The notes: generated by a model not told the origin, from the letters alone. DNA of 64,000 nt from Candidatus Micrarchaeota archaeon (GCA_016212505.1 JACRGB010000039.1:1590-65589); one strand, 5' to 3'. Positions 4,909 to 30,479 are shown, counted from the first letter of the stretch. A program made the numbers and translations.

Positions 4909-5162
4909 ATATTTTCCCTATGTCCTATTTCAAGTATAACTATTACTTTTTCATTTTCAAAAGTTTCATAAGTTACCCTATAATTCCCCATTCGCATTCT
5001 ATATCTGTGATAAGTTCCTTCAAGTTTTTTATATTTACGAACGAAAGGGCCTTCTTTCAATTGCGCTAAAGCTTTTAGTAATTTTTCTAAATCCGTTCTA
5101 AGTTTTAATTTCTTCAGAAACTTCTCAGCATTATTGGATAATCTTATTTCCCAATCACTCAT
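4899..5162 (-). CDS. relE: RelE/ParE-family type II toxin
   Basis: 87 aa. The C-terminal pattern YRMRMGNYRVTYE....VIVILEIGHRENIY is typical of RelE/ParE. It overlaps the upstream small ORF by 8 nt. Confidence 0.8.
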   Translation of the reverse strand: MSDWEIRLSNNAEKFLKKLKLRTDLEKLLKALAQLKEGPFVRKYKKLEGTYHRYRMRMGNYRVTYETFENEKVIVILEIGHRENIYD

Positions 5163-5379
5163 GAAGCTTCACTTCTAATTCCTGTGCGAGTTTATCCAAG
5201 GGCTTATAATTTTTCTTACTTCTTGCACTTATCCTGTTTAGGTTTTCAACTTCTTTTTTAGAAATAGCCTCAAAACCAATAAAATTCTCTATTTTTTGGT
5301 CTACCCTTTGAACTGTTTTTTCTATTTTTTTTAATTCTTCATATAGCATATTTAAAGTTACATTTTCCATAATCTTCAC
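5155..5379 (-). CDS. putative antitoxin of the RelE-type module
   Basis: 74-aa helical ORF directly upstream of the toxin and overlapping it. The call rests on position; no motif was recognised. Confidence 0.55.
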   Translation of the reverse strand: MKIMENVTLNMLYEELKKIEKTVQRVDQKIENFIGFEAISKKEVENLNRISARSKKNYKPLDKLAQELEVKLHE

Positions 5380-5513
5380 AACTAACTTATTTGTTTTTAG
5401 ACATTAAAAAGGTATGTTTTCATTAAACAAAACAGTTATAAACCGTCATAACCTGTGACATACTTTTATAATCTTATCCCGACACTATTTTTATCGAAAA
5501 TCATTGAGTCCTA

Positions 5514-8500
5514 GTGGATAAAATGGCTCTAATCAGAAGAAGGGATAAGGATGGGCAGGGGGCAGTAGGTGATCCCCTTTCTCACTCAACTCCCGTTCCA
5601 TCACCAAGATCTTCAAAATCAGCATTTTCAAGATGGTTTTCAAGTAGGGCTGTTGCGGCAGCAACTGCGATTGTACTTAGCATAACCAATATAAATGCAG
5701 GAATGCCTAATTTGGCATACGGTAAACCTCCTTCCGGAGGGAGTGCAGGAATTATGGCACCAGGTCCAACATTAGTTTCACAAACTGAAGCAGAACTACG
5801 GGCAAAAGCGCAAGAGGCAGTTTCTATTTTAGTTAGCTTTGTCTCTTCTGGTGGCAACGATTCACAGGGAAAATTTTACTCAAGATATTATGCGATATTC
5901 ACTGATCTTGTAACAAAATATAATATGGCAGATCCAATACAAAAAGTTGCATTTTATGATACTTTTAAACATGCATTTGAAAATAACTCTATTCTTTTTG
6001 ATTTTCAAAGCAGATACGCTGCAGATAAAGGACTTCTTGGAGCTGATCCGCTCCTTATCGGCACAATGCTTTTTGATTGTATCCGGATGATTGCACAAGG
6101 AAAAAGAGGGGACGCAGAAGCACAGTTTGGCCCTAATTTTGTTGCTAAAATCAACCAGATAATAGCGGTGCAGTCTTCACCAGTTCTGATTGATATACGT
6201 GCGAAAATGTCTTCTGGTCAACTAAGAGAAATAAACGAATTTTTCCAGAGAATGGGTCTTCCTGCATGTGCCCCTAAAGATAACGTCGCAATGATGCAAC
6301 TGGTGGATGCAACTACTTCGGCATTTGGTTTAACCGATCCAATTCAAGCAACCCAATTCCTAAATGCAGTTGTTTATGCTTATCTTTGGTTAAAAAGCGG
6401 GGAAAAACAAAGTTTTGAATACTGGGTCAGCCAATTAAAGGCCGATAGCAAAAAAGCACAGGAGCTTGCACAGAGGGCTCATTATGCATCAAAAGGTCCC
6501 GGCCAGCAATCATATGAAATTTTCTATTCGGAATATAAAAAATATTATGAAACCCCAGAAGCACAAATACCAAAAAAAGTTGATCAGTTTGAAGAATTAA
6601 AAAAACGCTATCCTCCTCATGTCCAAACTAGTGAGATGCATCTTGCCAAGCTGACAAAAATTTTTGAAACTTCACCTTCAGGTATGGTTTTGCAGGAAAT
6701 AGTAAATCGCTTCAATTTTGCCAGTGAAGCGGTTTTAGTTTTGGGGCAAGATCCATCAAGAAAGGCGGATCTTGCAAAATTTAAGGCAGAGCTTGATCCT
6801 CTTAGCAAATGGCTCGACAAATTTGACCTAAAAAAATTCATGGCAGAAGAGGCGCAGGCCCGAATGGAATTTCTTTCTGCACTTGGTATGGCAAAAATAG
6901 ACCCACGTATAGTATTTGAAGGGTATAAAACAAAACAGTTTGCAGCAATCGATGAATTAAATACACTTATTCAAAATAAGCGTTTTGCTGATGCAAGGGA
7001 AAAATTAACTGAAATTAAACAAGATCTCAATCCCCTTCGTGATATGCTGGCAAAAACCCCTGCAGCGCGCGAATGGGCAGATAAGATTGGCCAGCACCTT
7101 ACAGTTATAAAAACTTCCATTTCTTCTGCTTCGGTAACTAAAAAGGCAACAGATTCTCTATCAAGTTTAAGATCCAATTTCAATGAACTTTCTGCAAATG
7201 CGATAACAATTGTATTATTTGGTGAAAGTCAAAAACCAATATCAGAAAAACTTGCGGCATTTAAATCGTGCTTTATGAAAATCGATTCTGCTTATCTTCT
7301 TCTTGGAGATCCAAAACGATCGCAGATATTTTCATTATTCGGAGAATTAGAGGAAATAGCAGGCCAAAAACAACTTTACAACTTAGTCCTGGCTCATCTT
7401 TTTGCGCTTGATCAGGAAGTGGGCGAAATTTTCACCAACCTTGCAATTGCTGATCCTGATTTAATTGACAAGATGAAAAAACGCGTTGATAAGACTTTCT
7501 CTGCAGATCAAGTCCGAAAAGGCCAGGAAGCCTGGGCAAGAGATTATCATCAAATTGATGTAAGCCCGCTTCTTCTTGATAAAAACGTCCAGGATCTTCA
7601 TACGCGTGTTTCCAGTGCGGTCGCATCAGGAAAAGAATTCAAACCCGGTGATTTAACAACGGATGAAATCGTTATGCTGAAAAAAATGTATGGAGATTTA
7701 CCCCTTGAAGTCCAACTTAGACATTTCAACAATCATTTCAGGCCTCCATCAGAAGTTGACAATCAGCGATATGCAATTGCAGCCGCACTGCCTCCTATAA
7801 CTGCAGCCGCATTTTTCCAGTATGTAAAGACAGTTCAGGAAAATCATGTGGGTTCAGAATATGAGCGAAGGTCTGTTCGCGATACCATAATTTTCCTTAA
7901 TTCGGTAAATCCCATTCTTGTACCAAAATACCTTGCTGCAATAAAAGCAGTGGCAGAATCCTGTGCAAATGCCCCAGACACATATTCGCAGTCGCTCGAT
8001 ATGATACATGCTGGTACAAGAACGGTAGCAGGCCTTGCAGATCCCCTAAACCCAATAAACAGAGGCGCACTAATTGATGTTCGCAGAGTTATTGATGAAC
8101 TTGGTGATGCATTTAATTATATAAGAAGATCAGTTGCTTCAGGAAACCTAATCTATGACCGGCTTGACCTTTTGGATAGGACAATTTATCTTCTTCCGCA
8201 AGAGCCGCATTATATTCTTCATAAGCCATGGGCACTTAAGCCGCCTTTGATAGCCCCAGGTTATGGAGTTCCAGGCGGGTTTTATCCAAGCCCTTTCCCA
8301 AGACTGCTTACTCTTCCGGCACCAATTATTCCAGTAACTTCAGGAAGGGCTAACCTAAGTCCAGGCACAATCTATACTCCTGAAAGCGCAGCAATTGTTC
8401 CAACTACAATTATTCCTTCTTTATATATTAACACTTTTGCAGCTTCAACAGTTGCTAATGCAAGAAGTTGGTTTTATCCGACTCATACTCCAGTAACTAT

Positions 8501-11282
8501 CTCAACTGCTTTCCCAGGTTCAACCATCTGGTTCCCAAGTTTAACTAAATTCGGACTCATAATTCAGGATGCCTTCAGGCCAAAGAGGCCCCTGGAATAC
8601 AGTGCAAAGCCAATTGGCGGCGGCGGGCAATTTGGTTATGCCTGGGGCGATAATATTCCTACTATAGTAGGAGGAGTGGGAAGCTGGGTCACTACTACTG
8701 GTGGTGTTGCTGCTGCACTAAATGCAAGTTCAGAAACAGGTTTTGGAGGGTTAGGCATAGCCGGCCAGCCATTAGGAAGCAAAGGGGGAATAAGAAGTGC
8801 TTCCATAGGCGCTGAAGTAACCCCATCGCAGGCAAATGCGATTGCAAAAACTCTTTTCAGCCAATATGACCCAAAAAATCCAAAAAACATTGCATTCTCT
8901 GCTACTGCAGAAGCTGATCGCCTTCCAGGCGGAACAAAATCCACAGTTACTGGTGTATTTTCTTATACCGATCGTGATATTTATCTAAGGGTTTCCGGAG
9001 GCCATAGCGATTATTATGCTGATCTTAATTCTTTTGTATCTTTCCTCCTTACTGGAAAATATTCTACTGATGAAACTAAAGCAAAAGTTCCATTAACTGC
9101 TGCAGCAAATGTTGAAAATGTTTTGACAGAATCAGAAAAAAGCGGCGGTTCTGCACTGGCAGTAGATCTTGGAAGAACTTCTGTTCTATTGCATTTCCAG
9201 GAACTTTCATCACTTTATCTTTCTGGCTATGCAGCTGGTGGTGCCCAGGGCCAGGCTGCTATGGCGCCAACACAATATTTATGGACTGGTGCATTTGCCC
9301 CAACAGTAAGGGAGGTTGGCAAGACATCGGTTTATGAATTTAAATTCCCCGGGGAGTTGCTACGGTTTGATCGTGGCATGGGTACGGGCACTGGCGCAGG
9401 CCAGAGCGATGATTATTTCATACAGGATGGAGTGTTCACATTAATGCGCAGAAAAACCGATGGCGGAATAACAAGATTGTCCGAGTTTACCATTGGTGCC
9501 GGAGGCGGGTTCTACACCACACTTCCTCCTACTGTTCCTGGCATGCCTCCTCCTACTGAAAGTGTTACGCATGGTGCTGGACGCGGGGGGATACACTACA
9601 AACAAGAAACGATCTGGTCGGATAGGACACATACCAATTGGGGCCTTGGTGCTTCAGTGGAAGCAGGACCTGCAGATGCCCAGGCACTGCAATTTGCCCA
9701 GGCAGCATTCCAAAGAACTTATCTTCAAAACCTCTATAAGATCGGAGTTTATGGCTATGGGAGTAAGAGAGCAAACGAGCTTGTCTATGGTGCTTTGCTC
9801 AGCCTGATCCCACAATTCACTGTGGATCCCCAGAGTGGTGCGAGCTTCGATGCAATGAAATGGCTCTTTATTGGATTTATTGCAGGCGCAAGGGACATTT
9901 ATGGCGAAGATGTTTTCAAAAGAACCCAGGGCGCGCGAGTGGAAATTCAGCGCTACCAGGCAATTGATGTAATTGCAGATAATTTCAATGGTTTAATGTC
10001 TACTTATGGCAACAATCCCCAGCAGATACAGGCATTTATACAAAATTTCAAAAATTATTATGGCGTTATCGACCAGTTCTTTGACCGCTATGCTCTTGCT
10101 GTTAGTGTTTCGGAGAATTTTTCTCTTGATTTTAATATGGTTGCAAGGGAAGTTCCGGTTTCAGGAAAAGGCGGGGATTGGTATAAGCAGGTGCCTGATA
10201 ATGTGAGCGGAAGAGCACTTCTAACATTTAATCGTGGTTTTGCGCGTGCCCAGGCTTTCTTCCCACTTTTTCCGGCCAATCCTCAATTAGGTGGAATGGC
10301 TGGTGCGGTAGGTGCTGATCTTGGGCTTGATTTATTCAATGGGCCGGCATTTAACCGCATGATTGTTGGTGCTGCAGCTATTTTGTCACGCGATCAACTG
10401 GGCGAGCAGTGGAAATACAAAGCAACATTGCTTCAGGGCGGAATAGTTCTTTACAATAATCTGGTTGAAAATTATTCGAGCTACAAATCACTTGTGGCAA
10501 AATATGACCGTGCTGCGCAATATCTTGATAGCCCAAATAAGAAGATCCGGGGATACATAGGAAAAATTGATCCGGAATTAAGGGCCCAGCTTGCTTCTGG
10601 AGCAAATCCATTAATAAAATCCCAAAAAGTACGGGATCTTCTACTTGCTGCAGATGAAAGAACAATAAATCTTGATGAATCAACCTTGCGTGAAATTGGA
10701 GTTGCCTTAGGCCAACTATTTGAGCGGGAAAAATTCGCAATACAGGAAAAATTCAACAAAAGCGTTAAGGAAAATCTTGAAATTTATACTGCTGCCCGTG
10801 TCCTTATAGACGGGGATAAAATGTGGGATGTTGGAATATTTGCACAATATGTTGACCGGATGAAATTATACTTAATTGGAGGGATGCGCGATCAGCCCCA
10901 GTTCTTTGGCGGTTTTGATATCAAGCTGGTTAAGCGCGATAATATAGAATTTAATCTTGGTGCAATCCAGGGTGTAAGAGGAAAAGCAGGAGGCGGGCCA
11001 CCAGACGCTGGCTTTGGAGCTCATTTCCAGCTTAAGTTCCCACAAAGGACTGCTGGCGGCAGGCCAGGGGTTTCGGTTCACTTTGCAGGAGGATATTCAA
11101 CACAAGATAGTCCGACCTATTCAGATATTCTTATGCAAACTTACCAATATGGCGGCTTTGCAGGAGGCTGGGGCTTTATCACTTTATCTATAGGTGATGT
11201 TTATCGCGGTGCAACTCCAATGTTTATCAATCCAGGTCCTACTCCTTACAGCCCAACTCAGGCAAATCCCTACCAGAGATAG
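5514..11282 (+). CDS. giant orphan secreted/anchored protein (1922 aa)
   Basis: Uninterrupted 5.8 kb ORF (GTG 5514 or ATG 5523). Charged N-region followed by the hydrophobic segment AVAAATAIVLSI..AYG. The N-terminal half looks helical, a Pro-rich linker lies near 8221-8560, and the C-terminal half is Gly/aromatic-rich. Confidence 0.8.
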   Translation: MDKMALIRRRDKDGQGAVGDPLSHSTPVPSPRSSKSAFSRWFSSRAVAAATAIVLSITNINAGMPNLAYGKPPSGGSAGIMAPGPTLVSQTEAELRAKAQEAVSILVSFVSSGGNDSQGKFYSRYYAIFTDLVTKYNMADPIQKVAFYDTFKHAFENNSILFDFQSRYAADKGLLGADPLLIGTMLFDCIRMIAQGKRGDAEAQFGPNFVAKINQIIAVQSSPVLIDIRAKMSSGQLREINEFFQRMGLPACAPKDNVAMMQLVDATTSAFGLTDPIQATQFLNAVVYAYLWLKSGEKQSFEYWVSQLKADSKKAQELAQRAHYASKGPGQQSYEIFYSEYKKYYETPEAQIPKKVDQFEELKKRYPPHVQTSEMHLAKLTKIFETSPSGMVLQEIVNRFNFASEAVLVLGQDPSRKADLAKFKAELDPLSKWLDKFDLKKFMAEEAQARMEFLSALGMAKIDPRIVFEGYKTKQFAAIDELNTLIQNKRFADAREKLTEIKQDLNPLRDMLAKTPAAREWADKIGQHLTVIKTSISSASVTKKATDSLSSLRSNFNELSANAITIVLFGESQKPISEKLAAFKSCFMKIDSAYLLLGDPKRSQIFSLFGELEEIAGQKQLYNLVLAHLFALDQEVGEIFTNLAIADPDLIDKMKKRVDKTFSADQVRKGQEAWARDYHQIDVSPLLLDKNVQDLHTRVSSAVASGKEFKPGDLTTDEIVMLKKMYGDLPLEVQLRHFNNHFRPPSEVDNQRYAIAAALPPITAAAFFQYVKTVQENHVGSEYERRSVRDTIIFLNSVNPILVPKYLAAIKAVAESCANAPDTYSQSLDMIHAGTRTVAGLADPLNPINRGALIDVRRVIDELGDAFNYIRRSVASGNLIYDRLDLLDRTIYLLPQEPHYILHKPWALKPPLIAPGYGVPGGFYPSPFPRLLTLPAPIIPVTSGRANLSPGTIYTPESAAIVPTTIIPSLYINTFAASTVANARSWFYPTHTPVTISTAFPGSTIWFPSLTKFGLIIQDAFRPKRPLEYSAKPIGGGGQFGYAWGDNIPTIVGGVGSWVTTTGGVAAALNASSETGFGGLGIAGQPLGSKGGIRSASIGAEVTPSQANAIAKTLFSQYDPKNPKNIAFSATAEADRLPGGTKSTVTGVFSYTDRDIYLRVSGGHSDYYADLNSFVSFLLTGKYSTDETKAKVPLTAAANVENVLTESEKSGGSALAVDLGRTSVLLHFQELSSLYLSGYAAGGAQGQAAMAPTQYLWTGAFAPTVREVGKTSVYEFKFPGELLRFDRGMGTGTGAGQSDDYFIQDGVFTLMRRKTDGGITRLSEFTIGAGGGFYTTLPPTVPGMPPPTESVTHGAGRGGIHYKQETIWSDRTHTNWGLGASVEAGPADAQALQFAQAAFQRTYLQNLYKIGVYGYGSKRANELVYGALLSLIPQFTVDPQSGASFDAMKWLFIGFIAGARDIYGEDVFKRTQGARVEIQRYQAIDVIADNFNGLMSTYGNNPQQIQAFIQNFKNYYGVIDQFFDRYALAVSVSENFSLDFNMVAREVPVSGKGGDWYKQVPDNVSGRALLTFNRGFARAQAFFPLFPANPQLGGMAGAVGADLGLDLFNGPAFNRMIVGAAAILSRDQLGEQWKYKATLLQGGIVLYNNLVENYSSYKSLVAKYDRAAQYLDSPNKKIRGYIGKIDPELRAQLASGANPLIKSQKVRDLLLAADERTINLDESTLREIGVALGQLFEREKFAIQEKFNKSVKENLEIYTAARVLIDGDKMWDVGIFAQYVDRMKLYLIGGMRDQPQFFGGFDIKLVKRDNIEFNLGAIQGVRGKAGGGPPDAGFGAHFQLKFPQRTAGGRPGVSVHFAGGYSTQDSPTYSDILMQTYQYGGFAGGWGFITLSIGDVYRGATPMFINPGPTPYSPTQANPYQR

Positions 11283-11335
11283 CATGGAGTAAGGTTTTAT
11301 AATCCATTTGTGAATGTACTTCAGAGGTCGATAGT

Positions 11336-11740
11336 ATGAGATTAGATTTTATTGATTTTAATTTTTCTGAAACCAGAAAAGTTGGGCCAAATCTTCATCA
11401 AGGAGTTGCAACTAATATTGATGTCAATAATGTAAAAATGGAAGAAAATATGCTTTCAATGGATTTTGTCTTTACTGCAATTTATTCACCGAGCAATAGC
11501 AACATAACAATTGGCGGCAGCGTAAAATTTAGCGGTGATGAAATAAAGGCTGCATATTCAGATTATACAAAAAACAAGAAATTTTCCCCTACCTATGGCG
11601 AGGAAATAGTCAATGCAATAAATTATCATGCTTCTATGAACGCGATATTAATCGGAAGGGCAGTTAATCTTCCTCCTCCAGTAATATTACCAACAATAAA
11701 GTTCCAAAACAACCAAGTTCCTGCAAAAAGCAAAAAATAA
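11336..11740 (+). CDS. small hypothetical protein, possible SecB-like chaperone fold
   Basis: 134 aa with its own TATA (ggttttataatcc) and a GAGG before the ATG. The layout and the C-terminal ...AVNLPPPVILPTIKF resemble the SecB ...[11 protein letters not shown] region. This is a weak by-eye similarity only. Confidence 0.5.
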   Translation: MRLDFIDFNFSETRKVGPNLHQGVATNIDVNNVKMEENMLSMDFVFTAIYSPSNSNITIGGSVKFSGDEIKAAYSDYTKNKKFSPTYGEEIVNAINYHASMNAILIGRAVNLPPPVILPTIKFQNNQVPAKSKK

Positions 11741-11770
11741 TCGAATAATCGCCCAGAAAGTTCGGCAAAA

Positions 11771-13012
11771 TTAGCGCCTTAAAGGCGCAGCCTTTTCCTT
11801 ATTTTTCTCAACAAAATTTGTCCATTCGATTATCAATGCAGATGAATCACGCATTCCTTCTGGAATATTTATTCCCTGGGTTTTTAGAAATGTACTGACA
11901 ACTCCTATTGCCAGTTTTCTTTTTTGTTCATCCATCGGAGCGCTGATCATCATAAGAATAGACCCAGTTCCCTGAGTAACTTTTCCGAACAGATCATTCT
12001 TTACAATTGAACTGAAATATAGTTTTTCAAAAGCACTATCCACAACTTTTTTCTCTGCCTTATCTAATAATGCTTCGACTTCTTTTGCTTTTCCAGCATT
12101 TACGTTTTGGATAATCAATTCTTCTGTAACTTTTGGTTGAGCAACCGCCGGAGCAGCTGCTGGCGCCACTACTCTTGCTGGAGGAGCGGCACTGTCAGTT
12201 TCTTGTCGCGGAGCAGCCGCCTCAACTTTCGGTTCCCATCTCTTTATCCTTTGGTCTTCCTTCCCTTCTGCGTTAAATCGCCTTGCATAAAGTGCAGTCC
12301 CGATCACTGCCCTGCTAATTTCGCCAAAAGACCTAATCGCGTACAGTTCATCCCCAAATGCAGATGATCCATTTTGTGCAAAATATTCATTTAGCCCCTT
12401 GACCAGTGCATCCAAATTTTCTGTACTTACTTTACTTCCTTTTGCTGCTCCCCCCAGAAATAATGCTAGTCGCATATATGCGCCGCTGGTTTGTCCATCA
12501 ACGTATTGTTTGAACTTGTTTCCCTTCTCCGATGATACAAATTCTATGAGTGCTTGGGCGGTTTCATTTTTAGGCATTTTTTCAATATCATCTGCCCGCT
12601 GATAAAGAGCATCGATTTCTCCCTTTTCTATTCTTTTGGTGAGCCATTTTAGGTCTATTTTTTCTAATTTGGCCACTTTTACCCAGGCAAGTTCGCCTTC
12701 CCTTCTTGCAGGAGTTGCATGTATTGTTTCAGAAGGTTCTTTTTCCCCTCCTTCGATTCCGAGTTTTGCTTTGATCAGAAGAATGGCGCGATTTATTTCA
12801 GCATCCTCCCGTTTGAGTTTGCGTATTTCGGCTTTTGATTTCTCATCCCCTCCATCACCAGCGTCCCGGTATGCACTATTTAATGCTTTTATTATTTTTT
12901 CTCTTATTGCTGAATCATCATCTGTTGCATTTACTTTAATTTTAGTTGGAAAATTCTGCGCTGTACAGTTTACCGTAAGGACTCCACTTTTGTCTGCAAC
13001 TATTCCTGTCAT
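11771..13012 (-). CDS. hypothetical protein (413 aa) translationally coupled to the 2700-aa gene
   Basis: Its ATG overlaps the stop of the upstream giant gene (ATGA at 13009-13012). It has the Pro/Ala linker AAPPARVVAPAAAPAVAQP. No recognised domain. Confidence 0.7.
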   Translation of the reverse strand: MTGIVADKSGVLTVNCTAQNFPTKIKVNATDDDSAIREKIIKALNSAYRDAGDGGDEKSKAEIRKLKREDAEINRAILLIKAKLGIEGGEKEPSETIHATPARREGELAWVKVAKLEKIDLKWLTKRIEKGEIDALYQRADDIEKMPKNETAQALIEFVSSEKGNKFKQYVDGQTSGAYMRLALFLGGAAKGSKVSTENLDALVKGLNEYFAQNGSSAFGDELYAIRSFGEISRAVIGTALYARRFNAEGKEDQRIKRWEPKVEAAAPRQETDSAAPPARVVAPAAAPAVAQPKVTEELIIQNVNAGKAKEVEALLDKAEKKVVDSAFEKLYFSSIVKNDLFGKVTQGTGSILMMISAPMDEQKRKLAIGVVSTFLKTQGINIPEGMRDSSALIIEWTNFVEKNKEKAAPLRR

Positions 13013-16000
13013 TTTTTCACCGCGTCTCGTCTTAAATTGTCACCCTTTGTTTTTAGTGCTGACTCGCTCGGTTCAAGGCCATCAATTTTTGCATCTTCTC
13101 CGTGGCCTTCTTTTATATGAATGCCATACCTATCATAAAGCTCTTTCGGGTCCGGATGTTTCAGCACTATTTCGAAGTATATGAGTTTCCTTGCGGTTTT
13201 TCTCTGCTCTCCTTCATCTGCACCAAGGCTATTTTTAAAAGGGGCTTTGGCAAGCAAATTTTCTATACGGAGTCTAACTTTAGAAGATATGTTCTTTTTA
13301 AAAAACGCATCCGCTTCAACCTGTTTCTGCTCCTCGCTTTTGCCGAATGTCGGGGCTGGCGTTGGCGCTTGGGCGGGCGCTGCGCCTTGTGCTGAAGTGC
13401 CTGTTGGCAAGGGCGCAGTAAGAAGCGCTTTTACATGTGCTACCCGGTCGGTTTTCTCCTCCGGAATAGTAAGCTCCAGTTCCAATCCTCCGCCTTCAGT
13501 TGCTTTAACCCTTATTCCAATATCTTTGAGCACTTGCGGGGTATTGTCCTGCTCGCCCTTTTGCGCAGTTTTTGGCACATGGTATTGTCCTGCTCCGCGT
13601 GCTGCGGCTGCATGCCTATATATTGTATCATATATCTGTTGTTCTACTATCCCCGGCGCGATGCTTCCCGCTTTCTCCTTCAGCACCTCTCTTAGCTTAG
13701 TATCTGTTCCGATTGCCTTTAGCAGCCATCCATTTTCTGAAAGTCCGCTATTAAAGTATTCCCTTATGCGCGGGGTTATTGCCGCCCCCTTACTGACTTC
13801 ATAAAGCCCTAAAGAGTCACCTGCCCTTGAAATGGCAAGGCCACCCGGCAATATGTATGTCGGGTTTAATGGGGCCAGCCGGAGCTGCACTGCTTGCGGG
13901 GCGCTTGGTTTTGGTGCTTTAACTTTGAGCTGCTCAATGGAATCAAATATGCGCTTTACCTCTTTTTCAACATTTCCTCTTCCCCAGGTTTCTGTGCCGC
14001 TCCCAAGCAGTTTTAGCAATGCCAAAACCAGTTTTCCAGGGGCATCAAACTTGTCTTTTTCCGCAATTATCGCCTTAACCAGCCCTTGCCCGAACCTTGG
14101 ATCATTTGCCAAAGCCACAAGTTCCGGATGATCAAGCATTTTCGGATCAAGCTCTGCAAGTAAGCTTGGTCCCACCAATCCTTTGGCCTTTGCCTTTTCC
14201 ATTGCTTTGGCAGAATCACTTCCTATTATCTCCGAAGCAAGGTCTCTTGGATTGCCATATACCATTTGTGCATTATTTGGGTCAGCCCCAAGGGCAAAGC
14301 CATCAAGCCCGTTAAGTTTTGCCCAGTTCGCAACTTTTAATTTATAATTTTCCATGAGCCTTGCCGTGTCTGCTTCTGAAACCTTATACTCATCAACAAG
14401 CGCTTTGAACGCGGCCCTAAATTCAGGGTGCTGCGTTGCCCGATTATCCATAGCTGCAAGGAATGAATATGTGTTTGTTGAAGCAAGAGGATTTTCAAGA
14501 TAAAGGCCCGCAACTTCCAGCTGTTTTCTGATTCCATCCGCTGTTTCTGCTGGAGTTGATTTTCTTAGGTTTGCAACAGCATCAGCCATATATGACTGAG
14601 GTATATGGCCTCCAAGCACTCCTTCAGCATATAATATCCTGAATAGCTGTGGGTGGGTGCGTAAGAACTTTATATCTTCTTCCTGCTGCGATCCTACTAC
14701 CGGAACCTTGCCTTGCATTTGCACTATCCCTGTGGAAATACAGAATTTCAGCACCATGCCGTCGTATCCCCTCAAAAGGGCTTGCCTTGCAACCATCTGG
14801 TTGCTGAATGCTGAGAAGTACTTGAGGTCTTCTAAGTCAAATTTCGAATCTGGATTCAGCTTCCGTTTCTGGTTAATGTATTCTGTTAAGGCAGCAGTCA
14901 TAGGATACCCTTTCACCTGCCCATTCATGAGCGGATCTTGCAAATACCCTCTGTAAAATTTTTGTGCAAGCGTTCCACGGACAGTCTGGACATCCAAAGT
15001 TGGTATCTCTCCCTGCGCTCTTATCACTGCCAGTAATGACCCTCTGTCAAATGTCCTGCCGCTTACATCAGCATAATTCAAACCGAATATGCCTAATGTT
15101 TCCTTTACATATCCTTCTGCTTCTGGTTTTGGTAAATTAGCGTACCTGTTTAGTTTTTCCAAATCAATATACGCAATCTGCTGCTCAAGGATAGCACCCA
15201 AATAAGGGAAATCCTTCTGGAGTTTTGCAAATGCATCATCTGATCTTTTTACTGCATCATGAAGTTCTTTTGCCAGTTTTTCAATTTTTGATCCTGATTC
15301 CGGATGTCCGGCCTCTTTCCCTTTTTCTTTCCTCTCTGTTTCTTCCCTGGCTGCTGCTAAAGCTCCTCTTTTTTCTGTTTCTGCCTTTCTGGCTGCATTT
15401 AATTCTTCGATATCATCTTTTACTTCTACAAACCGGACTTCCCTTAGCATAACTGCCTCTGCTTTTCGGTGTGCCGTAGCAAGCAGGACATCATCTTTTG
15501 TTATACTTGCGGCTGTTAGGTCTTTTGTGAAACCAGCCTCAACTTCAGCTTTTTTCTCAGCTTTTACGGCCGGTCCTTGCAACTCCGCAAACTTATCGTT
15601 TATTCCCAATATTTTTCCCGCACCTGTTGCTGCTAAAAATGCCGGCCGCGGATCTATTACATAAATATTTGTATCTCCTATCTGCAAATCAAGCTTACCT
15701 TTATCACTTGGCTGCAACGTCTCCCTTTTGAGAGGTTCTGTAGGCAACATCCAAACATATTTTTCACCTTCTCCCCTATTTGGAAGAGGAATCCGGTAAC
15801 TTCCGAACCTATCGCTAATGCCCCCTTTTTCTTCAAGACCCCATGCTTCTGCCATTTTTTCTTTCCTTTCATACTCTGGGTCCAACCCAAAATGATAAGC
15901 TGGCCAAGCCAAACTCATTGCTGCTGGCAGGAAATATGCATAGGGCCATCCTCCTCCCCTGAAAAATGCCCTTCCCCTGCTCGGGCTTGCTTTAAAGCCC

Positions 16001-19000
16001 CTCCATCCAGCATACCCAATAGCCGCAGGTACTCCTACTGCTGCAATTCCTCCGAGCCCTATGGTGTATAAACCAACACCTAGGGTCGCTACTCCAGCGG
16101 CACCTAGTCCTACTTTTGTTACCCTTTTCCAGGTTAGTTTTCTTGTATAACCCGGCGCAGTTGGGCCAGTGCCACTCGGGCCTTCTGTTGCAGACTTAAG
16201 ATGGCTTGCAGCATTAAATTCTACTGAAAATTGTGCATTTATTTTTATCTGGTTGGACAGCCTTCTTGTATAATCTACAAATCCATTTGCTTCCCCTACC
16301 ACTTCGGACGGGTTCGGGCCGCTGGCTTTTCCGGCCTCATTGATTTTGTTTCCAATCCGCTCGATCTTGGATGGATCTACTACTTGGCCTTTGCCATCAG
16401 CACCAGCTGCTTTATCTCCTGCCGCCAAGCGCAAAGCTTCGCTATGGACCTCATCGAGCAATCTCCCGATGTCCCTTATTGCTCCGCCCCTTTCGCTGTC
16501 TATGAATGAACGTGTTCCCCCTTCGATCACGTTAGTTATTGCTGTTTTATATCTGGCCTTTGCATCTGCAGTTACATCTACCCCATCAACCAGGGCATTT
16601 AATCTTGCTCCAATTATTGCATTTGCTGCCCGATTCGGTTCTCCAAGTGCTTTTGCACAATCTGCTGCTACTGTTCCTTCTCCAACCAATGCCTTAAGTG
16701 CAGTTCTTGCAGGTTTGCCATCTTCGCCAACTTTTACCTTTCCTTCTATGTCTTTTCCTAAGGCTTCACTGCCAAGATACTCGCTAACCGCCCCATTAAA
16801 GCCTCCAGCGCCAATATTTCCGCTGTCTGCTTTTTGCCTAAGGTCGGCAAATAAGTTATCCGGCCTTTGGCCAGTTTCTACCGCCCGTGAGTTATTCAGC
16901 CTGGCTATCTCTCTGGAGTAATGGTCGATAATCGCCCTTCTTTCATTTCCAACCGTCTCACCCGCCTCACCAACGGCCGGAGCGCCCCTTAGTACGGCGG
17001 CATCATTAGGATCCATTCGCGGGAGCATTTGGGCAAGGAGTTCAGGGTTCCGTTCCATTAATGCTTTCACTTGTTCTTCAGTTAGGGGTTTTGCCTGGTA
17101 TTCCTGAGTAACTTCCCTAGGGTTAACTCCTCTTGCGCGGGCTTCATCTTTAATTGTTTTTTCTGCTAATTCCTTGGCTTGAGCAGGAAGGTCTACCCCG
17201 ATCTCTCCTGATTTTGCATAAAGCGCTGCAAGGGTCTCTCCCTCTGCCCTTGTGCTCATGCTTCTCCTTAAATTGCCTACAGCATCATCGTATCTTTGTG
17301 CGATTTCCGCTGGTTTTAGCGCGCCTGCCTTGCCTAACTGCCCATCTACTGCTGCCCTCTCTTCAACCGTAATTGTTTTGAATACGTCTCCGACAAGAGA
17401 CGGCCTGGCTTCTAACAATGCCTTAACCTGGCCTTCGCTTAATGTTTTTGCCCTATACTCATCCTCAATTGCCTTTGCTTCGACTGCCCTGCCTGCACGC
17501 GCTGATCTTTGCTTTGCCGCAGCATTTATTATGTCCCGTGCTTCTCTTGCAGCGTCTAATCCGAAGCCAGCTTTACTTTTTGCATAAAGTGTTGCAAGTA
17601 TTTCCCTGTAGCTGGATGGATCTTTCTCCTGAGGGTCAGTTGCCCTTCTTGCCAATTCTTGCGTTAATTTTTCAAACTCTTGTGGGTTAGCCCTGCGCAT
17701 CTCTTCAAGCGAAGCTACGCATTCTCCCTTATGTTCTTTGAGGAATTTATCTGCAATTTCTTTTGTGGGATCTATTGTTTGTTCTCTTGCTCTGGCTGCC
17801 GCTATTTCAGCTTCTGTTTTTCCAGCTTCAGCAGGCTCTGCGCCTTTAGGTCCCTTACCTTCAGGAATCGAAGCTACTTGTTTTACTTCTGGAGGTGCGG
17901 CGGTACTGTCTTTCATGAACCATCCGCCAACGGTTTTCAATGTCCCTCCAACTGCTCTACCCACTCGTCCTGCCCGTGTTCCTTGCGCTCCAACTTGTTC
18001 TGGGGGTACTTCGCCAGTTCTTGTCGGAATTATCTGGCCCCTAAGGTCTGTAAATTGTCCTTCTGGTGTAGTTCCGCCACCCGCTGCTGCCCGTGCAGCT
18101 TGTTCTGCAGGCTCGTCCACAATTCGTACTTTGCCTCGCAAATCCTTAAGATCATTTTCAAATCTTCTTCCTAAGAAACTATTAGCATCCAATCCTTGTT
18201 CTGAACCTAATGCATCCATTAGTTGTTTATTGTTTGCCCAGATTTCCATTCTTCTTCGCATTTCCGGAACCATTTCTTCCAGACGCCCTTGCGCGGCTTT
18301 TTGTGCATCCGCTCCTTTTCTTCCTGATAATGCGCTAAGATAATCCTGCAAAGTAGCTGTATCATTAAGGATTGCGCCTTTTGTTGGTGCCTCATATGCC
18401 CTTACTTCGGGTTTAACAATTCCAAGGTTCGCCATCTGCTCTTCAAGCAAGCTTGCCCTTACTGCCCGCATTCTCCAGTATCTTGAAATGCGGTTTGCAA
18501 TTGAATGCGCTACGCCCACTCCCGCCATCCCATACTGCAGATATGCCTCCCTTCTAAGTGAATCTGCCTCGTTGATTAATTCCCTCCTCCTCACTTCATC
18601 CACCTCTCCTTCTGCTTTAGCATAAAGTTCATTTGAATTTGCCTGTAGTTCGAGTGCATCCCCAGTCATTTTTAAGGTATATAACCATCCCATTCCTTTT
18701 GCAATTTGCTCTGCTGATACTGTCACATTTTCTGCTGCTTTTAAGGCCTTAAGTGCACCTGCTGTTGCACCTGCCCCAACTAGTGCAGCTGTTATAGCAA
18801 CATTGGCCCACGTTTCATTGCTTACTTTTCCAGTGGCCTCATATTCAGTTACCACATCATCGGTAGTTGTTCCTATTATCAATGCGCCAGATATCCAGGG
18901 GCCAACTACTGGGATGAAACCGCTTCCTATAGTTGCAGCTATTAAAGCCACTTTGCCTGCGAACTTTGCCTTTTCTGCCTCTTTTTCCATCTGCTGGAGT

Positions 19001-21111
19001 ATTTTTGTTGCTTCATTAAGCGTATCTATGCTCGTTTCTTTTCCTCCACTTTCTGCTGCAAGCGTACCTATTTCTGCCCCCTCTATTTTGAATTTTGGAC
19101 CTCCGCCTGATCCCCCACCCCCTTTTGGTGAAAATGGGCCGAAAGTACCTGCGCCTCCCACCCCTGCAAGTACAAGCCAGACTACTGCCTTTTCATGCTC
19201 TGCCATCCCTCCAAGAGGAGTTATTGAATGGGCAGGAGTTGCAAATATTGCAGTTTCAATTAATTTCGTGCCTTTAAATCTTCTTTGAAGGTCTTCCCCA
19301 TCTATAATCCCAAAAAGGATATTGTGCATTGCATCAGTGTGAATTCTTTCATATGCTTCAAGGTCTGGTTTGAAATTATAAAGATATCTTACCCAATCCT
19401 CAGCTTTCATATCAATGCCCAAAGTGGCACTGAGCATCCTGCCTTGCTCTAGAAGCGTTGTTTTTTCCACTGCGCCGCTTTCAAAATTCGGTGCACCATA
19501 TATTTGTAGTGCCTGCCTTCTTGCCTTTATTGCCAAAGAATATAATTTTTCGGCCTCCTCAAATTTACCTGCCCGCAAAAATCCTACTGCAGCATCTAAT
19601 CTGGATTTGCTATCTGCAAGATAATCAAGGGCCTTATAGCTCTGGCCTGCAAAATGTTCTTTATTTAATGCCCGATAATACGCTTCATGCCGGGTCAATT
19701 CCCCATCCATTATCTGGAGCCCTACTGTTTTTCTTTTGAGTTCTACGCTTTGCCGGATAAGTTCCCTATATTCATCATACGGGATTTTTTCATCCGGTTT
19801 AAGCCCTGCTATTTTTGCACTAAACTGGTGAACCTGTTTGAATAAATGTTCCCATTCTGAGCGTAGCATCGGATCCAATTTTTTAAAGTCTGGCGTATCC
19901 TCATAACGTGTGATTTCCCCAAAGCGGTCAACTGAAATTGGGTACGGAAAAGGCAGGGTATCCCCGACAATTTCGAAAGGCGCTGCCAACTGCTTTTTCC
20001 CTTTCCATCCGCTTAAGAGAATGCTGCTCATTTGCCCTAATCCATTATCAATGCCTTTTTTTATGGCTTCAATATCCTGCGCTCTTGCGGCATCGGCAAC
20101 TAAATTACCCCTTAATATGATCCGCTTTCTCTCTTCACTATATCCCCTTAAATCCCCTTTTATTGCAGCAAGATGGGCGTTACGAAGGAGCTCTTTAAGC
20201 GTAGTCCCCCCCTTTAATCGGGAATCGGTCTTATGGATTTTTTCTTCATATCCTGAGGCACCTTCATAAATTTTTTTCATGTTATAGTAATCCGTAAGCG
20301 CATTGCATATGTCTATATTTCTTGAAACGCCCTTATCGAAAGTCTCTTCCTTTGCAGCCCATTTTTCTGCAAGTTTTTCTTCTTTCCTTTCGCCCTCTTT
20401 GCCTTGAGGAATTTCCCAGTTTTCCGAAGCATAATCTGCAAGCATTTCCTCCATTACAGAACCTTTGAACCCTAAGCTTACCGAATCGATTTTATTCCCT
20501 TTCCTGACTCCGAATTCCTCGATACTTGCAACATAGGTGATTGCAAAACCCATCCCATGATCTGCATAGACAAATTCCCCTTTCCTGGCAAGTTCTTCTG
20601 CTGTGCGGAGAACTTTTTCGGCAAGGGCTTTCTGCCTGGTAAGGCCTTTTCCCCAGTTTGAAAGGGATGCGCGCAGGCCAGCAGCCTGCTCGCTGTATTC
20701 CGAATAAGCTACTTCCTTCGAAAATTGAGCCAGCATTTCCGGGGTTAGCGGAGTTCTGTTTTCTACAATTGTCTGGAATCTGGACTGGAATTTTTTCTTC
20801 TCATCCTCGTTCAATAGCGGCAGGAGCATTCCTACGCTGATCGCAAACCCAGCAACATCCAGCCGCCCTTCCTTTATCGCAGATAGCGCCTGCTCGCCGA
20901 ACCATTTTGTTTTTGGGTTTTTTACCTGCACTTTTGCAGCCTTAGACAAAAGCTCGGTATACCCTGTAATTTTTGCCCGGACTTCCGGAGCCTGGGCAAC
21001 TGCTTCTGCGCCCCTGGCCAAGTCAGCTATCTCTGCAAGCACTTTTTTCATGTCCTGCTCATAAGGATTTTCCCTAACTCTTTGTGGACTTTGTGGAGAA
21101 CCGCTCATCAT
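13009..21111 (-). CDS. giant orphan membrane-associated protein (2700 aa)
   Basis: Uninterrupted 8.1 kb ORF with no N-terminal signal. It has two internal clusters of hydrophobic helices (coding about 18745-19200 and 15890-16125), an internal 122-aa tandem repeat and long charged helical stretches. Confidence 0.85.
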   Translation of the reverse strand: MMSGSPQSPQRVRENPYEQDMKKVLAEIADLARGAEAVAQAPEVRAKITGYTELLSKAAKVQVKNPKTKWFGEQALSAIKEGRLDVAGFAISVGMLLPLLNEDEKKKFQSRFQTIVENRTPLTPEMLAQFSKEVAYSEYSEQAAGLRASLSNWGKGLTRQKALAEKVLRTAEELARKGEFVYADHGMGFAITYVASIEEFGVRKGNKIDSVSLGFKGSVMEEMLADYASENWEIPQGKEGERKEEKLAEKWAAKEETFDKGVSRNIDICNALTDYYNMKKIYEGASGYEEKIHKTDSRLKGGTTLKELLRNAHLAAIKGDLRGYSEERKRIILRGNLVADAARAQDIEAIKKGIDNGLGQMSSILLSGWKGKKQLAAPFEIVGDTLPFPYPISVDRFGEITRYEDTPDFKKLDPMLRSEWEHLFKQVHQFSAKIAGLKPDEKIPYDEYRELIRQSVELKRKTVGLQIMDGELTRHEAYYRALNKEHFAGQSYKALDYLADSKSRLDAAVGFLRAGKFEEAEKLYSLAIKARRQALQIYGAPNFESGAVEKTTLLEQGRMLSATLGIDMKAEDWVRYLYNFKPDLEAYERIHTDAMHNILFGIIDGEDLQRRFKGTKLIETAIFATPAHSITPLGGMAEHEKAVVWLVLAGVGGAGTFGPFSPKGGGGSGGGPKFKIEGAEIGTLAAESGGKETSIDTLNEATKILQQMEKEAEKAKFAGKVALIAATIGSGFIPVVGPWISGALIIGTTTDDVVTEYEATGKVSNETWANVAITAALVGAGATAGALKALKAAENVTVSAEQIAKGMGWLYTLKMTGDALELQANSNELYAKAEGEVDEVRRRELINEADSLRREAYLQYGMAGVGVAHSIANRISRYWRMRAVRASLLEEQMANLGIVKPEVRAYEAPTKGAILNDTATLQDYLSALSGRKGADAQKAAQGRLEEMVPEMRRRMEIWANNKQLMDALGSEQGLDANSFLGRRFENDLKDLRGKVRIVDEPAEQAARAAAGGGTTPEGQFTDLRGQIIPTRTGEVPPEQVGAQGTRAGRVGRAVGGTLKTVGGWFMKDSTAAPPEVKQVASIPEGKGPKGAEPAEAGKTEAEIAAARAREQTIDPTKEIADKFLKEHKGECVASLEEMRRANPQEFEKLTQELARRATDPQEKDPSSYREILATLYAKSKAGFGLDAAREARDIINAAAKQRSARAGRAVEAKAIEDEYRAKTLSEGQVKALLEARPSLVGDVFKTITVEERAAVDGQLGKAGALKPAEIAQRYDDAVGNLRRSMSTRAEGETLAALYAKSGEIGVDLPAQAKELAEKTIKDEARARGVNPREVTQEYQAKPLTEEQVKALMERNPELLAQMLPRMDPNDAAVLRGAPAVGEAGETVGNERRAIIDHYSREIARLNNSRAVETGQRPDNLFADLRQKADSGNIGAGGFNGAVSEYLGSEALGKDIEGKVKVGEDGKPARTALKALVGEGTVAADCAKALGEPNRAANAIIGARLNALVDGVDVTADAKARYKTAITNVIEGGTRSFIDSERGGAIRDIGRLLDEVHSEALRLAAGDKAAGADGKGQVVDPSKIERIGNKINEAGKASGPNPSEVVGEANGFVDYTRRLSNQIKINAQFSVEFNAASHLKSATEGPSGTGPTAPGYTRKLTWKRVTKVGLGAAGVATLGVGLYTIGLGGIAAVGVPAAIGYAGWRGFKASPSRGRAFFRGGGWPYAYFLPAAMSLAWPAYHFGLDPEYERKEKMAEAWGLEEKGGISDRFGSYRIPLPNRGEGEKYVWMLPTEPLKRETLQPSDKGKLDLQIGDTNIYVIDPRPAFLAATGAGKILGINDKFAELQGPAVKAEKKAEVEAGFTKDLTAASITKDDVLLATAHRKAEAVMLREVRFVEVKDDIEELNAARKAETEKRGALAAAREETERKEKGKEAGHPESGSKIEKLAKELHDAVKRSDDAFAKLQKDFPYLGAILEQQIAYIDLEKLNRYANLPKPEAEGYVKETLGIFGLNYADVSGRTFDRGSLLAVIRAQGEIPTLDVQTVRGTLAQKFYRGYLQDPLMNGQVKGYPMTAALTEYINQKRKLNPDSKFDLEDLKYFSAFSNQMVARQALLRGYDGMVLKFCISTGIVQMQGKVPVVGSQQEEDIKFLRTHPQLFRILYAEGVLGGHIPQSYMADAVANLRKSTPAETADGIRKQLEVAGLYLENPLASTNTYSFLAAMDNRATQHPEFRAAFKALVDEYKVSEADTARLMENYKLKVANWAKLNGLDGFALGADPNNAQMVYGNPRDLASEIIGSDSAKAMEKAKAKGLVGPSLLAELDPKMLDHPELVALANDPRFGQGLVKAIIAEKDKFDAPGKLVLALLKLLGSGTETWGRGNVEKEVKRIFDSIEQLKVKAPKPSAPQAVQLRLAPLNPTYILPGGLAISRAGDSLGLYEVSKGAAITPRIREYFNSGLSENGWLLKAIGTDTKLREVLKEKAGSIAPGIVEQQIYDTIYRHAAAARGAGQYHVPKTAQKGEQDNTPQVLKDIGIRVKATEGGGLELELTIPEEKTDRVAHVKALLTAPLPTGTSAQGAAPAQAPTPAPTFGKSEEQKQVEADAFFKKNISSKVRLRIENLLAKAPFKNSLGADEGEQRKTARKLIYFEIVLKHPDPKELYDRYGIHIKEGHGEDAKIDGLEPSESALKTKGDNLRRDAVKK
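16990..17600 (-). repeat. in-frame tandem duplication (2 x about 122 aa) inside the 2700-aa gene
   Basis: Copy 1 reads ATLYAKSKAGFGLD...EYRAKTLSEGQVKALLEARPSL and copy 2 reads AALYAKSGEIGVDL...EYQAKPLTEEQVKALMERNPEL. The shared DNA string ttgcataaag recurs 366 nt apart (17215 and 17581). Confidence 0.65.
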
Positions 21112-21155
21112 TTCACCAATTTTTATCAGTAACTTTCACACTCATCATTAACTCT

Positions 21156-21479
21156 TCACCAGTAACTTCTGCAGATTGTTACGAAATTAACCAATCGGGC
21201 TAATCGCTCTTCCCGCTCTTTCTCATCGCCCTCTACGCTCACTTCATCATACCAGACCCGAAGCGTATTATAGAAATTTTTTATCTTATCGACCTGGTTA
21301 ATCATGCCAGATGGCCTGGATTTTGCCTTTTCCCATTTTATTAGGAATTCAGAAATAGAATCTAGTGTGCTTCTTGTGCGCATGAGCGCTTCCTTTTCCA
21401 TCGAATTAAGGTCTGTCCTGACTGGGATTGCAGTTTTTGCCCTCCAGTCCCGCCCTTTTTTAGTGACCATTACTATCAC
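21156..21479 (-). CDS. hypothetical small protein, first gene of the giant minus-strand operon
   Basis: 107-aa ORF 44 nt upstream of the 2700-aa gene. A TATA-like tttataaa lies about 25-30 nt upstream of its ATG. Confidence 0.55.
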   Translation of the reverse strand: MIVMVTKKGRDWRAKTAIPVRTDLNSMEKEALMRTRSTLDSISEFLIKWEKAKSRPSGMINQVDKIKNFYNTLRVWYDEVSVEGDEKEREERLARLVNFVTICRSYW

Positions 21480-21594
21480 TTATCTATGATTCTGCGACTT
21501 TTATAAACGCTTAGCCTGTCAAAACAACTGTGCTGTACTTGACTATAATTAGCACGATTATGTTATTAAAGTCTTGTTTCATGGCCCTTTGTGG

Positions 21595-22032
21595 TTATTT
21601 TGCCCCTTGTTGTGTAAAAACAATTCTTTTTGCAGCACTTAAGAACTTTTTTGCATCTTTTATCGCTTCAACTGCACTAGACTCTGAACATAATGATCCT
21701 TCGTATTGTATCATATGCCTTGTTTCACGATAATTTTGTGATATCTCACCTAACCTGGAAAGTTCGCTGTCTGCTTTGAACTCCACCCTGACAAATTCGA
21801 ATAGGCAAAAATGGCTTCGTTCCTTATAGTTTCTACTATAAAGAAGCGCCCGTGCAGAATGAAAGATGCTTATGTAAGAAGTAAGAAAGGATATGTCATA
21901 TACGTCCTTATCCATTATTTTCTCTGCTTTTTTTATGTACTCCTGCGCTATTTTTATTTGGTTTTCTGTCTCTTCCTTTACGACCGGGATTTTTCTTAGC
22001 AACCCCCTTTCAATGCAATTACGGTAACTCAT
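21595..22032 (-). CDS. HEPN domain protein (toxin of HEPN/MNT pair)
   Basis: Helical protein with the pattern ...YISIFHSARALLYSRNYKERSH.. typical of HEPN. The ATG at 22032 overlaps the MNT stop (ATGA). The ORF track starts it at an upstream GTG (22047). Confidence 0.75.
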   Translation of the reverse strand: MSYRNCIERGLLRKIPVVKEETENQIKIAQEYIKKAEKIMDKDVYDISFLTSYISIFHSARALLYSRNYKERSHFCLFEFVRVEFKADSELSRLGEISQNYRETRHMIQYEGSLCSESSAVEAIKDAKKFLSAAKRIVFTQQGAK

Positions 22033-22589: not shown

Positions 22590-22724
22590 ACCATATATGG
22601 TACGTTCATACTCTATATAAAATGATCGTTTTATTAATAATATGATAATTTTTATTGTATTGGAATTTGCAAATTCCAATGCGGACAAATTTTTGCGAAA
22701 ATTTGTCCTTGAGTAATGAAAAGC

Positions 22725-30465: not shown

Positions 30466-30479
30466 ACTCATTTTATGTT

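Follow-up and report, generated by a model that had tools for sequence, protein, structure and literature searches.

A stretch of 64,000 nucleotides from the genome of Candidatus Micrarchaeota archaeon (GCA_016212505.1, JACRGB010000039.1:1590-65589), hereafter called the window, carries a cluster of five genes, A to E, between the housekeeping genes trm56 and ftsY. Two of the genes encode giant proteins, A and D. We rate the cluster as a new kind of system, because its proteins belong to none of the known systems with which we compared them and resemble some of these in predicted architecture only. Judging from sequence comparisons, it consists of lineage-specific families under purifying selection. 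We tentatively favor the explanation, with a chance that we put somewhat below even, that the cluster encodes a Micrarchaeota-specific, vertically inherited envelope or host-contact apparatus built around protein A as a stalked giant β-barrel. The initial annotation of this DNA had proposed a cell-surface, cell-cell contact or translocation apparatus of an episymbiotic archaeon. The source is indeed an archaeon of this type, a member of the DPANN, and the predicted giant barrel of A, which resembles bacterial outer membrane proteins (OMPs), adds to this proposal, whose functional part we infer on computational grounds throughout.

Genes A (positions 5514-11282, 1922 amino acids) and B (11336-11740, 134 amino acids) lie on the plus strand and face the minus-strand genes E (21156-21479, 107 amino acids), D (13009-21111, 2700 amino acids) and C (11771-13012, 413 amino acids). 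Calling of open reading frames (ORFs) returned all five with the coordinates and strands of the initial annotation. The genes are real; by our own arithmetic, the chance of a run of 2700 codons without a stop is about 1e-74 at 41% GC. GenBank lists equivalents as HY988_06365 (A, 100% identical), HY988_06370, and HY988_06380 (D, 100% identical); its start for A is the ATG at 5523, which gives 1919 amino acids, and its D begins one codon later, which gives 2699. Reading of the sequence also agreed with the earlier description of the two junctions. The stop codons of B and C are separated by 30 nucleotides (11741-11770), and an ATGA at 13009-13012, where the stop codon of D and the start codon of C overlap, couples C translationally to D. 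Terminator-like GC hairpins with T-runs, found by a consensus scan and direct reading of the sequence, occur on each strand where the operons converge (11774-11795) and overlap the last codons of C. The scan gave 2 such sites, versus 0.3 ± 0.5 in shuffled sequences.

The cluster is conserved and syntenic in other Micrarchaeota. An exhaustive phmmer search with residues 750-1922 of A, counted as clusters at the 50% identity level, yielded 41 representative clusters at E ≤ 1e-3 and 33 at E ≤ 1e-30. The full-length members are mostly 1500-2200 amino acids long, and all named members come from Micrarchaeota or Micrarchaeia. Genes B, D and E have homologues as well, so the proteins are not the orphans for which they were first taken. 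The homologues of B retrieved by sequence search are P0004-P0009, and a B homologue was present in every A-bearing locus that we compared (these loci are numbered L001 to L018). Locus L001, in another Micrarchaeota genome, was reached via a distant D homologue. It has the order FtsY, a protein of 1261 amino acids, E, D, C, A, B, a protein of 179 amino acids and Trm56, with E through B co-directional. Compared with the window, its A is 25-29% identical over about 1300 amino acids (E 3e-44), its B 37% (E 1e-33), its E, a gene of 108 amino acids directly upstream of D, 44% (E 2e-25), and its D 22% over 548 amino acids (E 2e-11); the pairwise comparison of the two C proteins was not significant. 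The D protein of L008 is 24.5% identical to that of the window over 738 amino acids (E 9e-22).

The search of other archaeal genomes for the same synteny, suggested in the initial annotation, thus found the cluster between ftsY and trm56 elsewhere in the Micrarchaeota. Loci L007 and L008/L009 have the convergent layout of the window, with Trm56, A and B followed by C and D on the opposite strand. L018, on a contig of 1.57 Mb, has the neighborhood of the window with all genes co-directional: L31e, eIF6, L18A, prefoldin/FtsY, a protein of 608 amino acids, a D-like protein of 1203 amino acids, a C-like protein of 438 amino acids, A, B and Trm56. The existence of two arrangements, one convergent and one co-directional (L001 and L018), indicates that the convergence arose by inversion of the A-B module in place and is neither a defining nor a design feature. 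In L016, a C with a GDSL domain, A and B are followed by a second giant protein, and in L010/L013 and L015 the A-B pair stands behind a different protein of 659-795 amino acids. The B homologue of L017 is 7 kb distant from A. In L007, B and C are separated by an inserted gene for radical-SAM wyosine formation (15197-16165, minus strand), showing that the junction of the A-B and C-D modules tolerates insertions. A scan of genome contigs found only the L001 contig again, and a metagenome scan with an alignment of 6 B sequences found 4 loci. Between L001 and L002, the ratio of nonsynonymous to synonymous substitution rates was 0.19 for A, 0.11 for B and 0.28 for C, and selection on these genes is purifying.

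The initial annotation had found no known signature in the five proteins by eye, and database searches agreed. Searches of all five against Pfam, NCBIfam, PHROGs and PADLOC gave sub-threshold noise only, and PDB sequences, searched by single sequence and by profile with A, B, D and E as queries, returned nothing meaningful, the A profile finding coiled-coil noise. Pfam scans revealed no family common to 28 A homologues and no match at E ≤ 10 for 6 members of the B family. Neither the A of the window nor the 28 homologues matched a known OMP family, with one of the 28 members hitting OmpA_like at E 0.094. We detected no N- or C-terminal or other S-layer (surface layer) profile and no RHS repeat in the five proteins or the 28 A homologues. 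Structures of Rhs, Tc or teneurin proteins were missing from the top 50 fold matches of A. Self-BLAST of A and D found no internal repeats, and the sole tandem DNA repeat of the region was a trivial one of 18 bp in 2 copies; a repeat adhesin architecture was rejected for both giants on these grounds. The profile and structure searches, as far as they were run, therefore assign the proteins to no well-described family such as S-layer proteins, adhesins or Rhs/YD proteins, and the literature that we searched does not describe these families.

Protein A consists of an N-terminal hydrophobic segment, a helical region of about 850 amino acids, a proline-rich linker and a C-terminal β-rich region. 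A Kyte-Doolittle scan placed the hydrophobic segment at residues 42-64 (5637-5705, plus strand; FSSRAVAAATAIVLSITNINAGM), with a core of 15-20 residues after a long basic n-region; by these sequence features it is a Sec-type signal peptide or signal anchor. Equivalent segments are present in L001, in L010 and, after extension to an upstream ATG, in L007, and the TNIN motif that follows the segment is kept in L001. The A of L018, as called, has no such segment. The N-terminal signal or anchor attributed early on to one of the giants is thus found in A, and in 4 of the 6 A N-termini examined. Residues ~90-900 are rich in helix-forming residues.

We modeled residues 750-1922 of A with AlphaFold2 from an alignment of 32 sequences. 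The best model had a mean predicted local distance difference test (pLDDT) score of 71.5 and a predicted TM-score (pTM) of 0.65. Mean pLDDT lay between 65.9 and 71.5 in the five models, and 191 residues were below 50. The model comprises about 140 helical residues, the proline-rich linker and then about 37 strands of 5-19 residues arranged as hairpins, which make up a β-barrel-like region at residues ~1033-1893 (8610-11192, plus strand). DSSP assigned 37 strands of at least 5 residues, in which turns of 2-3 residues alternate with loops of 11-15 residues, and there are three helical inserts. A β-meander with alternating short turns and long loops, as expected for an outer membrane barrel, is thus present in the prediction. 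When the model was compared with the PDB using Foldseek, the top 50 matches were all bacterial outer membrane barrels, including SusC-type transporters (E 2.5e-4), PfeA, PiuA, Deinococcus SlpA (probability 0.98), MtrB and LptD (TMt 0.27). The TM-scores to known barrels are low (0.10-0.27), and the likeness is therefore architectural and not evidence of homology. A viral fold library returned no significant virion-protein match to the model. Its matches were SusC, OmpC, porin and autotransporter proteins, that is, mis-binned OMPs, and a viral structural protein was rejected as an identity of A.

The predicted strands have two distinct faces. One is apolar (A, V, G, L, F and I), with a mean Kyte-Doolittle hydropathy of +1.36 and 9% charged residues, and the other is polar and rich in glycine, serine and threonine, with a mean of -0.60 and 20% charged residues. 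This dyad hydrophobicity is conserved in the family. The period-2 amplitude of hydropathy, as a mean over the homologues without the window sequence, was 0.75, versus 0.553 ± 0.064 (maximum 0.738) in 1000 within-strand shuffles; such a pattern is not unique to membrane barrels and also occurs in β-sandwiches. Together, the model and the pattern support the prediction that the C-terminal ~900 amino acids of A form a very large amphipathic β-meander of the outer membrane barrel type, a fold that one would not expect in an archaeon. The strand number, predicted as about 36-38, comes from the summary of the model, and the strands may close into a barrel. In common with SusC/TonB-dependent transporters, LptD and MtrB, A has a predicted antiparallel β-meander with alternating loops, apolar and polar faces and an N-terminal export signal. 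It differs from these bacterial barrels by matching no OMP profile, by lacking a plug domain and an aromatic β-signal, and by an additional helical N-terminal half of about 1000 amino acids. Another large bacterial barrel, SprA of the type 9 secretion system, has 36 strands.

The closest architectural analogue of A, as far as the model can tell, is SlpA of Deinococcus radiodurans, known from structures of the S-layer deinoxanthin-binding complex (8ae1, 8agd and 7zgx). Both proteins follow a plan of N-terminal anchor, long helical stalk and large C-terminal barrel. However, they have no sequence similarity, A has no SLH domain, and the TM-score is far below the level of a shared fold. SlpA has 30 strands and resides in a true outer membrane, whereas A, with about 37 predicted strands, comes from an archaeon for which only an S-layer has been reported. 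The analogy raises the alternative that A is a purely structural part of the envelope, like SlpA or the SlaB stalk of Sulfolobales, which would link the S-layer canopy with the cytoplasmic membrane and provide its pores, with D as a membrane skeleton and with no specific role in host contact or transfer. The place of SlpA among the best fold matches (best TMq 0.20) speaks for this alternative, as do the location of the cluster amid housekeeping genes and a separate S_layer_C gene 4 kb from A-B in L003. Moreover, a separate stalk protein, anchored in the membrane, has been suggested to be required for the S-layer of Micrarchaeum harzensis, and tomograms of strain ARM-1 show densities that span from the outer layer to the membrane. 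Yet none of the proteins has sequence similarity to any S-layer family, and a protein S-layer would offer no obvious lipids to the apolar exterior of the barrel. Fast divergence (25-30% identity between lineages) and the expansion of paralogues in L016 are also seen more typically in interaction proteins than in core wall proteins. We regard a purely structural role as unlikely, although it is a serious contender.

Protein B is small and is kept along with A in relatives. Its AlphaFold2 model, calculated from 6 sequences (pLDDT 78, pTM 0.74), has four strands followed by two helices. The fold matches of this model included proteins of the SecB-like class at ranks 1, 2, 9, 13 and 26, namely the SP1558-like structures 2hng and 2o2a, Rv1957 from Mycobacterium tuberculosis (5mtw) and the SecB structures 1fx3 and 1qyn, from the group that includes the E. 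coli and Haemophilus influenzae chaperones; none of the matches was significant (E 0.04-0.46, best 0.044; TM-scores 0.24-0.42). With its ~130 amino acids and predicted order of strands and helices, B is like these chaperones, and, as SecB is with OMPs, it is paired with a putatively exported β-rich client. It has no sequence or profile similarity to SecB, and homology was rejected (probability 0.1% in hhalign against E. coli SecB, no match to PF02556). SecB is acidic, whereas the net charge of B is about +2.

Genes related to B also accompany proteins that share the N-terminal part of A. The second giant protein of L016 (2114 amino acids, region 15337-22154) resembles A over its first ~250 residues only (46% identity, E 9e-51), and a B paralogue of 156 amino acids adjoins it on the opposite strand. 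In L010 (2861-6236), a B paralogue of 150 amino acids lies between secDF and the protein of 659 amino acids, which weakly resembles residues 97-228 of A. The adjacency to secD and secF in L010 is the only link of the B family to the Sec machinery that we saw. These sequence relationships suggest a modular system, in which an A N-terminal domain with a B-like partner could be combined with exchangeable C-terminal parts. That B-like genes travel with proteins containing the A N-terminal domain fits a dedicated chaperone or adaptor, and we propose from these sequence data that B is a dedicated chaperone or export adaptor of A.

The other giant, D, is rich in helix-forming residues throughout and contains no signal sequence, repeats or recognizable domain. 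The initial annotation had described it as lacking a signal and having two internal clusters of hydrophobic helices. Kyte-Doolittle peaks confirmed both clusters, of which only the first is conserved. Cluster 1 (residues ~642-789; 18745-19188, minus strand) is glycine-rich and hydrophobic, contains 3-4 candidate membrane helices and is found at equivalent positions in all four D proteins compared, those of the window, L001, L007 and L008; the BLAST alignment with the L001 protein spans it. Cluster 2 (residues ~1667-1702; 16006-16113, minus strand) is present in the window only and has no counterpart in the other three. The small protein E, whose gene leads the D operon and is kept in L001, had no PDB match, and a relationship between E and B was rejected by direct comparison.

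The gene in position C encodes a GDSL/SGNH hydrolase domain (PF13472) in L008 and L016. In the L008 protein, the domain scores E 1.7e-24 and the GDS, GGVND and D..LHP blocks are intact, and L001 has a degenerate copy. The domain is absent from the C of the window (413 amino acids, no Pfam match at E ≤ 1) and that of L007 (489 amino acids). The window protein aligned only weakly with the C-family profile, at E 1.1e-3 (hhalign probability 20%) and with the L007 protein at E 0.002 (BLAST). On this sequence evidence, it is a divergent, shortened member of an SGNH-bearing family that has lost the domain.

A hydrolase in this position brings up another possibility, that the cluster scavenges or transfers host lipids and thereby supplies a symbiont without lipid synthesis of its own. 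Protein A would provide a groove or lipid-trapping barrel, C would process the lipids, and D would be the acceptor in the membrane. DPANN archaea commonly lack lipid synthesis. The intact GDS, GxND and DxxH blocks of the C orthologue, the strongly apolar face of the β region of A, and the presence of the lipid transport barrel LptD among those matches of A that have the best TMt are in line with this possibility. However, the cluster has been kept where the SGNH domain is missing (the window and L007) or degenerate (L001), the top 50 fold matches contained no bridge-like lipid transfer structure, and glycans and peptides are further substrates of SGNH enzymes. We give lipid scavenging only a slender chance.

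Under the explanation that we favor, an envelope or host-contact apparatus around A, the cluster would consist of two modules, A-B and E-D-C. Protein A would be made with its N-terminal Sec-type signal or anchor and exported, its ~850-amino-acid helical region would be a stalk, and its C-terminal ~900 amino acids would fold into an amphipathic β-barrel of about 36-38 strands. If closed, this barrel would provide a pore several nm wide at the cell surface, within the outer layer of the envelope or in an attached host's membrane. Protein B may be a small cytoplasmic partner that binds the N-terminal domain or the unfolded chain of A and keeps it competent for export. Protein D may be a giant helical protein anchored in the membrane of the symbiont via its glycine-rich helix cluster, where it could serve as a platform, with E as its small partner. 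Protein C would be an accessory protein, a putative SGNH esterase or lipase in most lineages that has lost its domain here. Export, closure and membrane insertion of the barrel, the interaction of B with A, the cooperation of D with A, and the role in host contact are the parts of this scheme that we infer.

Several observations weigh against this explanation. No D-like gene was detected beside A in L010/L013, L015 and L017, and the A of L008 has no N-terminal hydrophobic segment. To the low TM-scores of the A model and the non-significant matches and rejected SecB homology of B must be added that A has no C-terminal aromatic β-signal; it ends with ...PTQANPYQR, about 29 low-confidence residues after the last strand. 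Furthermore, cultured Micrarchaeota have an S-layer and not an outer membrane, which makes it difficult to place a lipid-facing barrel, and to our knowledge no BAM (β-barrel assembly machinery) insertase exists in archaea. A scan that covered about 24 of the window genes of at least 120 amino acids found no Omp85/BAM-like gene among them. The main difficulty is to find a site for a lipid-facing barrel in a cell with an S-layer as its only reported outer structure, to which the lack of a known BAM and of a β-signal is added.

These points raise the question of whether the barrel is a modeling artefact. In that case, A could be a soluble β-rich surface protein or adhesin and D a long helical fibrous protein, with the five genes linked by position only. 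The shallow alignment of 32 sequences, the 191 residues of low pLDDT, the low TM-scores to true barrels, the occurrence of dyad hydrophobicity in β-sandwiches, and the lineages in which A has no D-like neighbor would all fit. On the other hand, all five models agree, the pTM is 0.65, and the top 50 PDB matches were outer membrane barrels to the last, with no sandwich, solenoid, Rhs cocoon or adhesin among them. Tandem or internal repeats of the kind found in adhesins are missing as well. An artefact is in our view improbable.

Insertion into the membrane of the host would be one solution to the problem of placing the barrel, and would give concrete form to the contact or translocation apparatus of the initial annotation. 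A more far-reaching version of the favored explanation, which we consider quite improbable, is that A is the first giant barrel of the outer membrane type in archaea, a single chain with about 36-38 strands, a helical stalk and, if closed, a pore of ~6-7 nm by our own estimate from barrel geometry. It would be exported with the aid of B and inserted into the host membrane as a conduit for the uptake of lipids, metabolites or macromolecules by the symbiont, with D as the matching platform in the membrane of the symbiont itself.

The initial annotation had also described the cluster as a compositionally distinct island, and the windowed comparison of GC and tetranucleotides with the flanks, which it had suggested, bears this out in part. 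The GC content of the cluster is 0.439, versus 0.404 for the rest of the window. The single genes have values of 0.427 (A), 0.328 (B), 0.413 (C), 0.462 (D) and 0.435 (E), compared with 0.415 ± 0.029 for 24 other genes, and are thus within ~1.6 standard deviations, except for the 405-nucleotide B gene, which is about 3 standard deviations low. GC at third codon positions (GC3) is 0.25-0.47 in the five genes, within the background of 0.354 ± 0.067. Tetranucleotide usage departs from that of the remaining sequence only at 14-20 kb, in the middle of D, with a correlation of 0.775-0.78 against a background of 0.93 ± 0.017, whereas the region of A is near background (0.88-0.96). The proteins had been called rich in alanine, glycine, proline and arginine. 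This holds for alanine (10-13% versus 7.9%) and glycine (8.7-9.5% versus 6.7%) in A, C and D; proline and arginine are near background, and B, which is rich in asparagine, isoleucine and lysine, and E show no alanine or glycine bias. The deviation in the middle of D fits a coding sequence rich in alanine, glycine, glutamate and arginine, possibly for a low-complexity protein region. As the deviation is confined to this part and GC3 is native, it reflects the amino acid bias of D and not foreign DNA.

A horizontally acquired island, a viral remnant or an Rhs-like polymorphic toxin locus is accordingly highly improbable. Such an origin could draw on the tetranucleotide deviation in D and on the toxin-antitoxin pairs on either flank of the cluster (ParE, 4899-5379; HEPN/MNT, 21595-22688). 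But the native GC3, the fixed place of the cluster between trm56 and ftsY even in distant relatives within the Micrarchaeota, the purifying selection and the absence of Rhs/YD repeats all contradict it. We also obtained no PHROG, significant PADLOC, phage or plasmid match, the last two in a tblastn search with the β region of A. By these sequence measures, a foreign origin is largely refuted, and with it the reading of the cluster as a foreign island.

Other host-dependent cells with reduced genomes also have very large proteins that are specific to their lineage and presumed to act at cell-cell interfaces, for example SPEARE proteins in Nanohaloarchaeum antarcticum and giant proteins in Omnitrophota. 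The SPEARE and Omnitrophota proteins carry protease, nuclease, adhesin or glycoside hydrolase domains. In A and D, by contrast, scans against Pfam and NCBIfam detected no such domains. The cluster takes up about a quarter of the window in a reduced genome, at a fixed chromosomal position and under purifying selection, and offers a concrete, phylum-wide candidate for the attachment of DPANN archaea to their hosts and uptake from them. Tomography of Micrarchaeota ARM-1 in co-culture has revealed large assemblies and envelope densities that are unexplained and have no genes assigned, and the contact structures likewise have no protein assigned to them. Another candidate role of the cluster would be in the protein cage or tubular organelle of Micrarchaeota cells. 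If the predicted fold is right, A would be the first large β-barrel of the outer membrane type in Archaea, and, if true, this would bear on the folding of such barrels without BAM and on their site of insertion in a single-membrane cell.

The neighbors of the cluster in the window are archaeal housekeeping genes, including those for aTrm56, FtsY, prefoldin, eIF-6, L31e, aminoacyl-tRNA synthetases and enolase. Toxin-antitoxin pairs bracket the cluster on both sides. Between trm56 and A is a gene for a ParE-family toxin (4899-5379, minus strand; 87 amino acids, PF05016 at E 3e-11), with an upstream ORF of 74 amino acids that overlaps it by 8 nucleotides and is likely the antitoxin; this pair is absent from the equivalent position in related loci. 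Between E and ftsY are a HEPN protein (150 amino acids) and a nucleotidyltransferase (219 amino acids; 21595-22688, minus strand), probably a HEPN/MNT toxin-antitoxin module. The window has separate, neighboring genes for FtsY (22725-24119) and prefoldin (24153-24599), versus a single protein of 619 amino acids in L018 (1233-3092), which could be a true fusion or a gene-calling artefact. The sole tRNA in the 64 kb is tRNA-Glu(UUC) (30479-30555, plus strand); an overlapping ORF of 255 amino acids (30475-31242), called mechanically, is unlikely to be a gene. In L008 (1-9089), three paralogous proteins of ~350 amino acids and one of 1476 amino acids, none with a Pfam domain, are encoded upstream of trm56 and make up a further block of large genes beside the cluster. 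In the window, the genes upstream of trm56 are two ORFs of 120 and 343 amino acids without a Pfam match and, before these, a gene for a eukaryotic-type Ser/Thr protein kinase of 564 amino acids (1096-2790, plus strand; Pkinase at E 6e-47).

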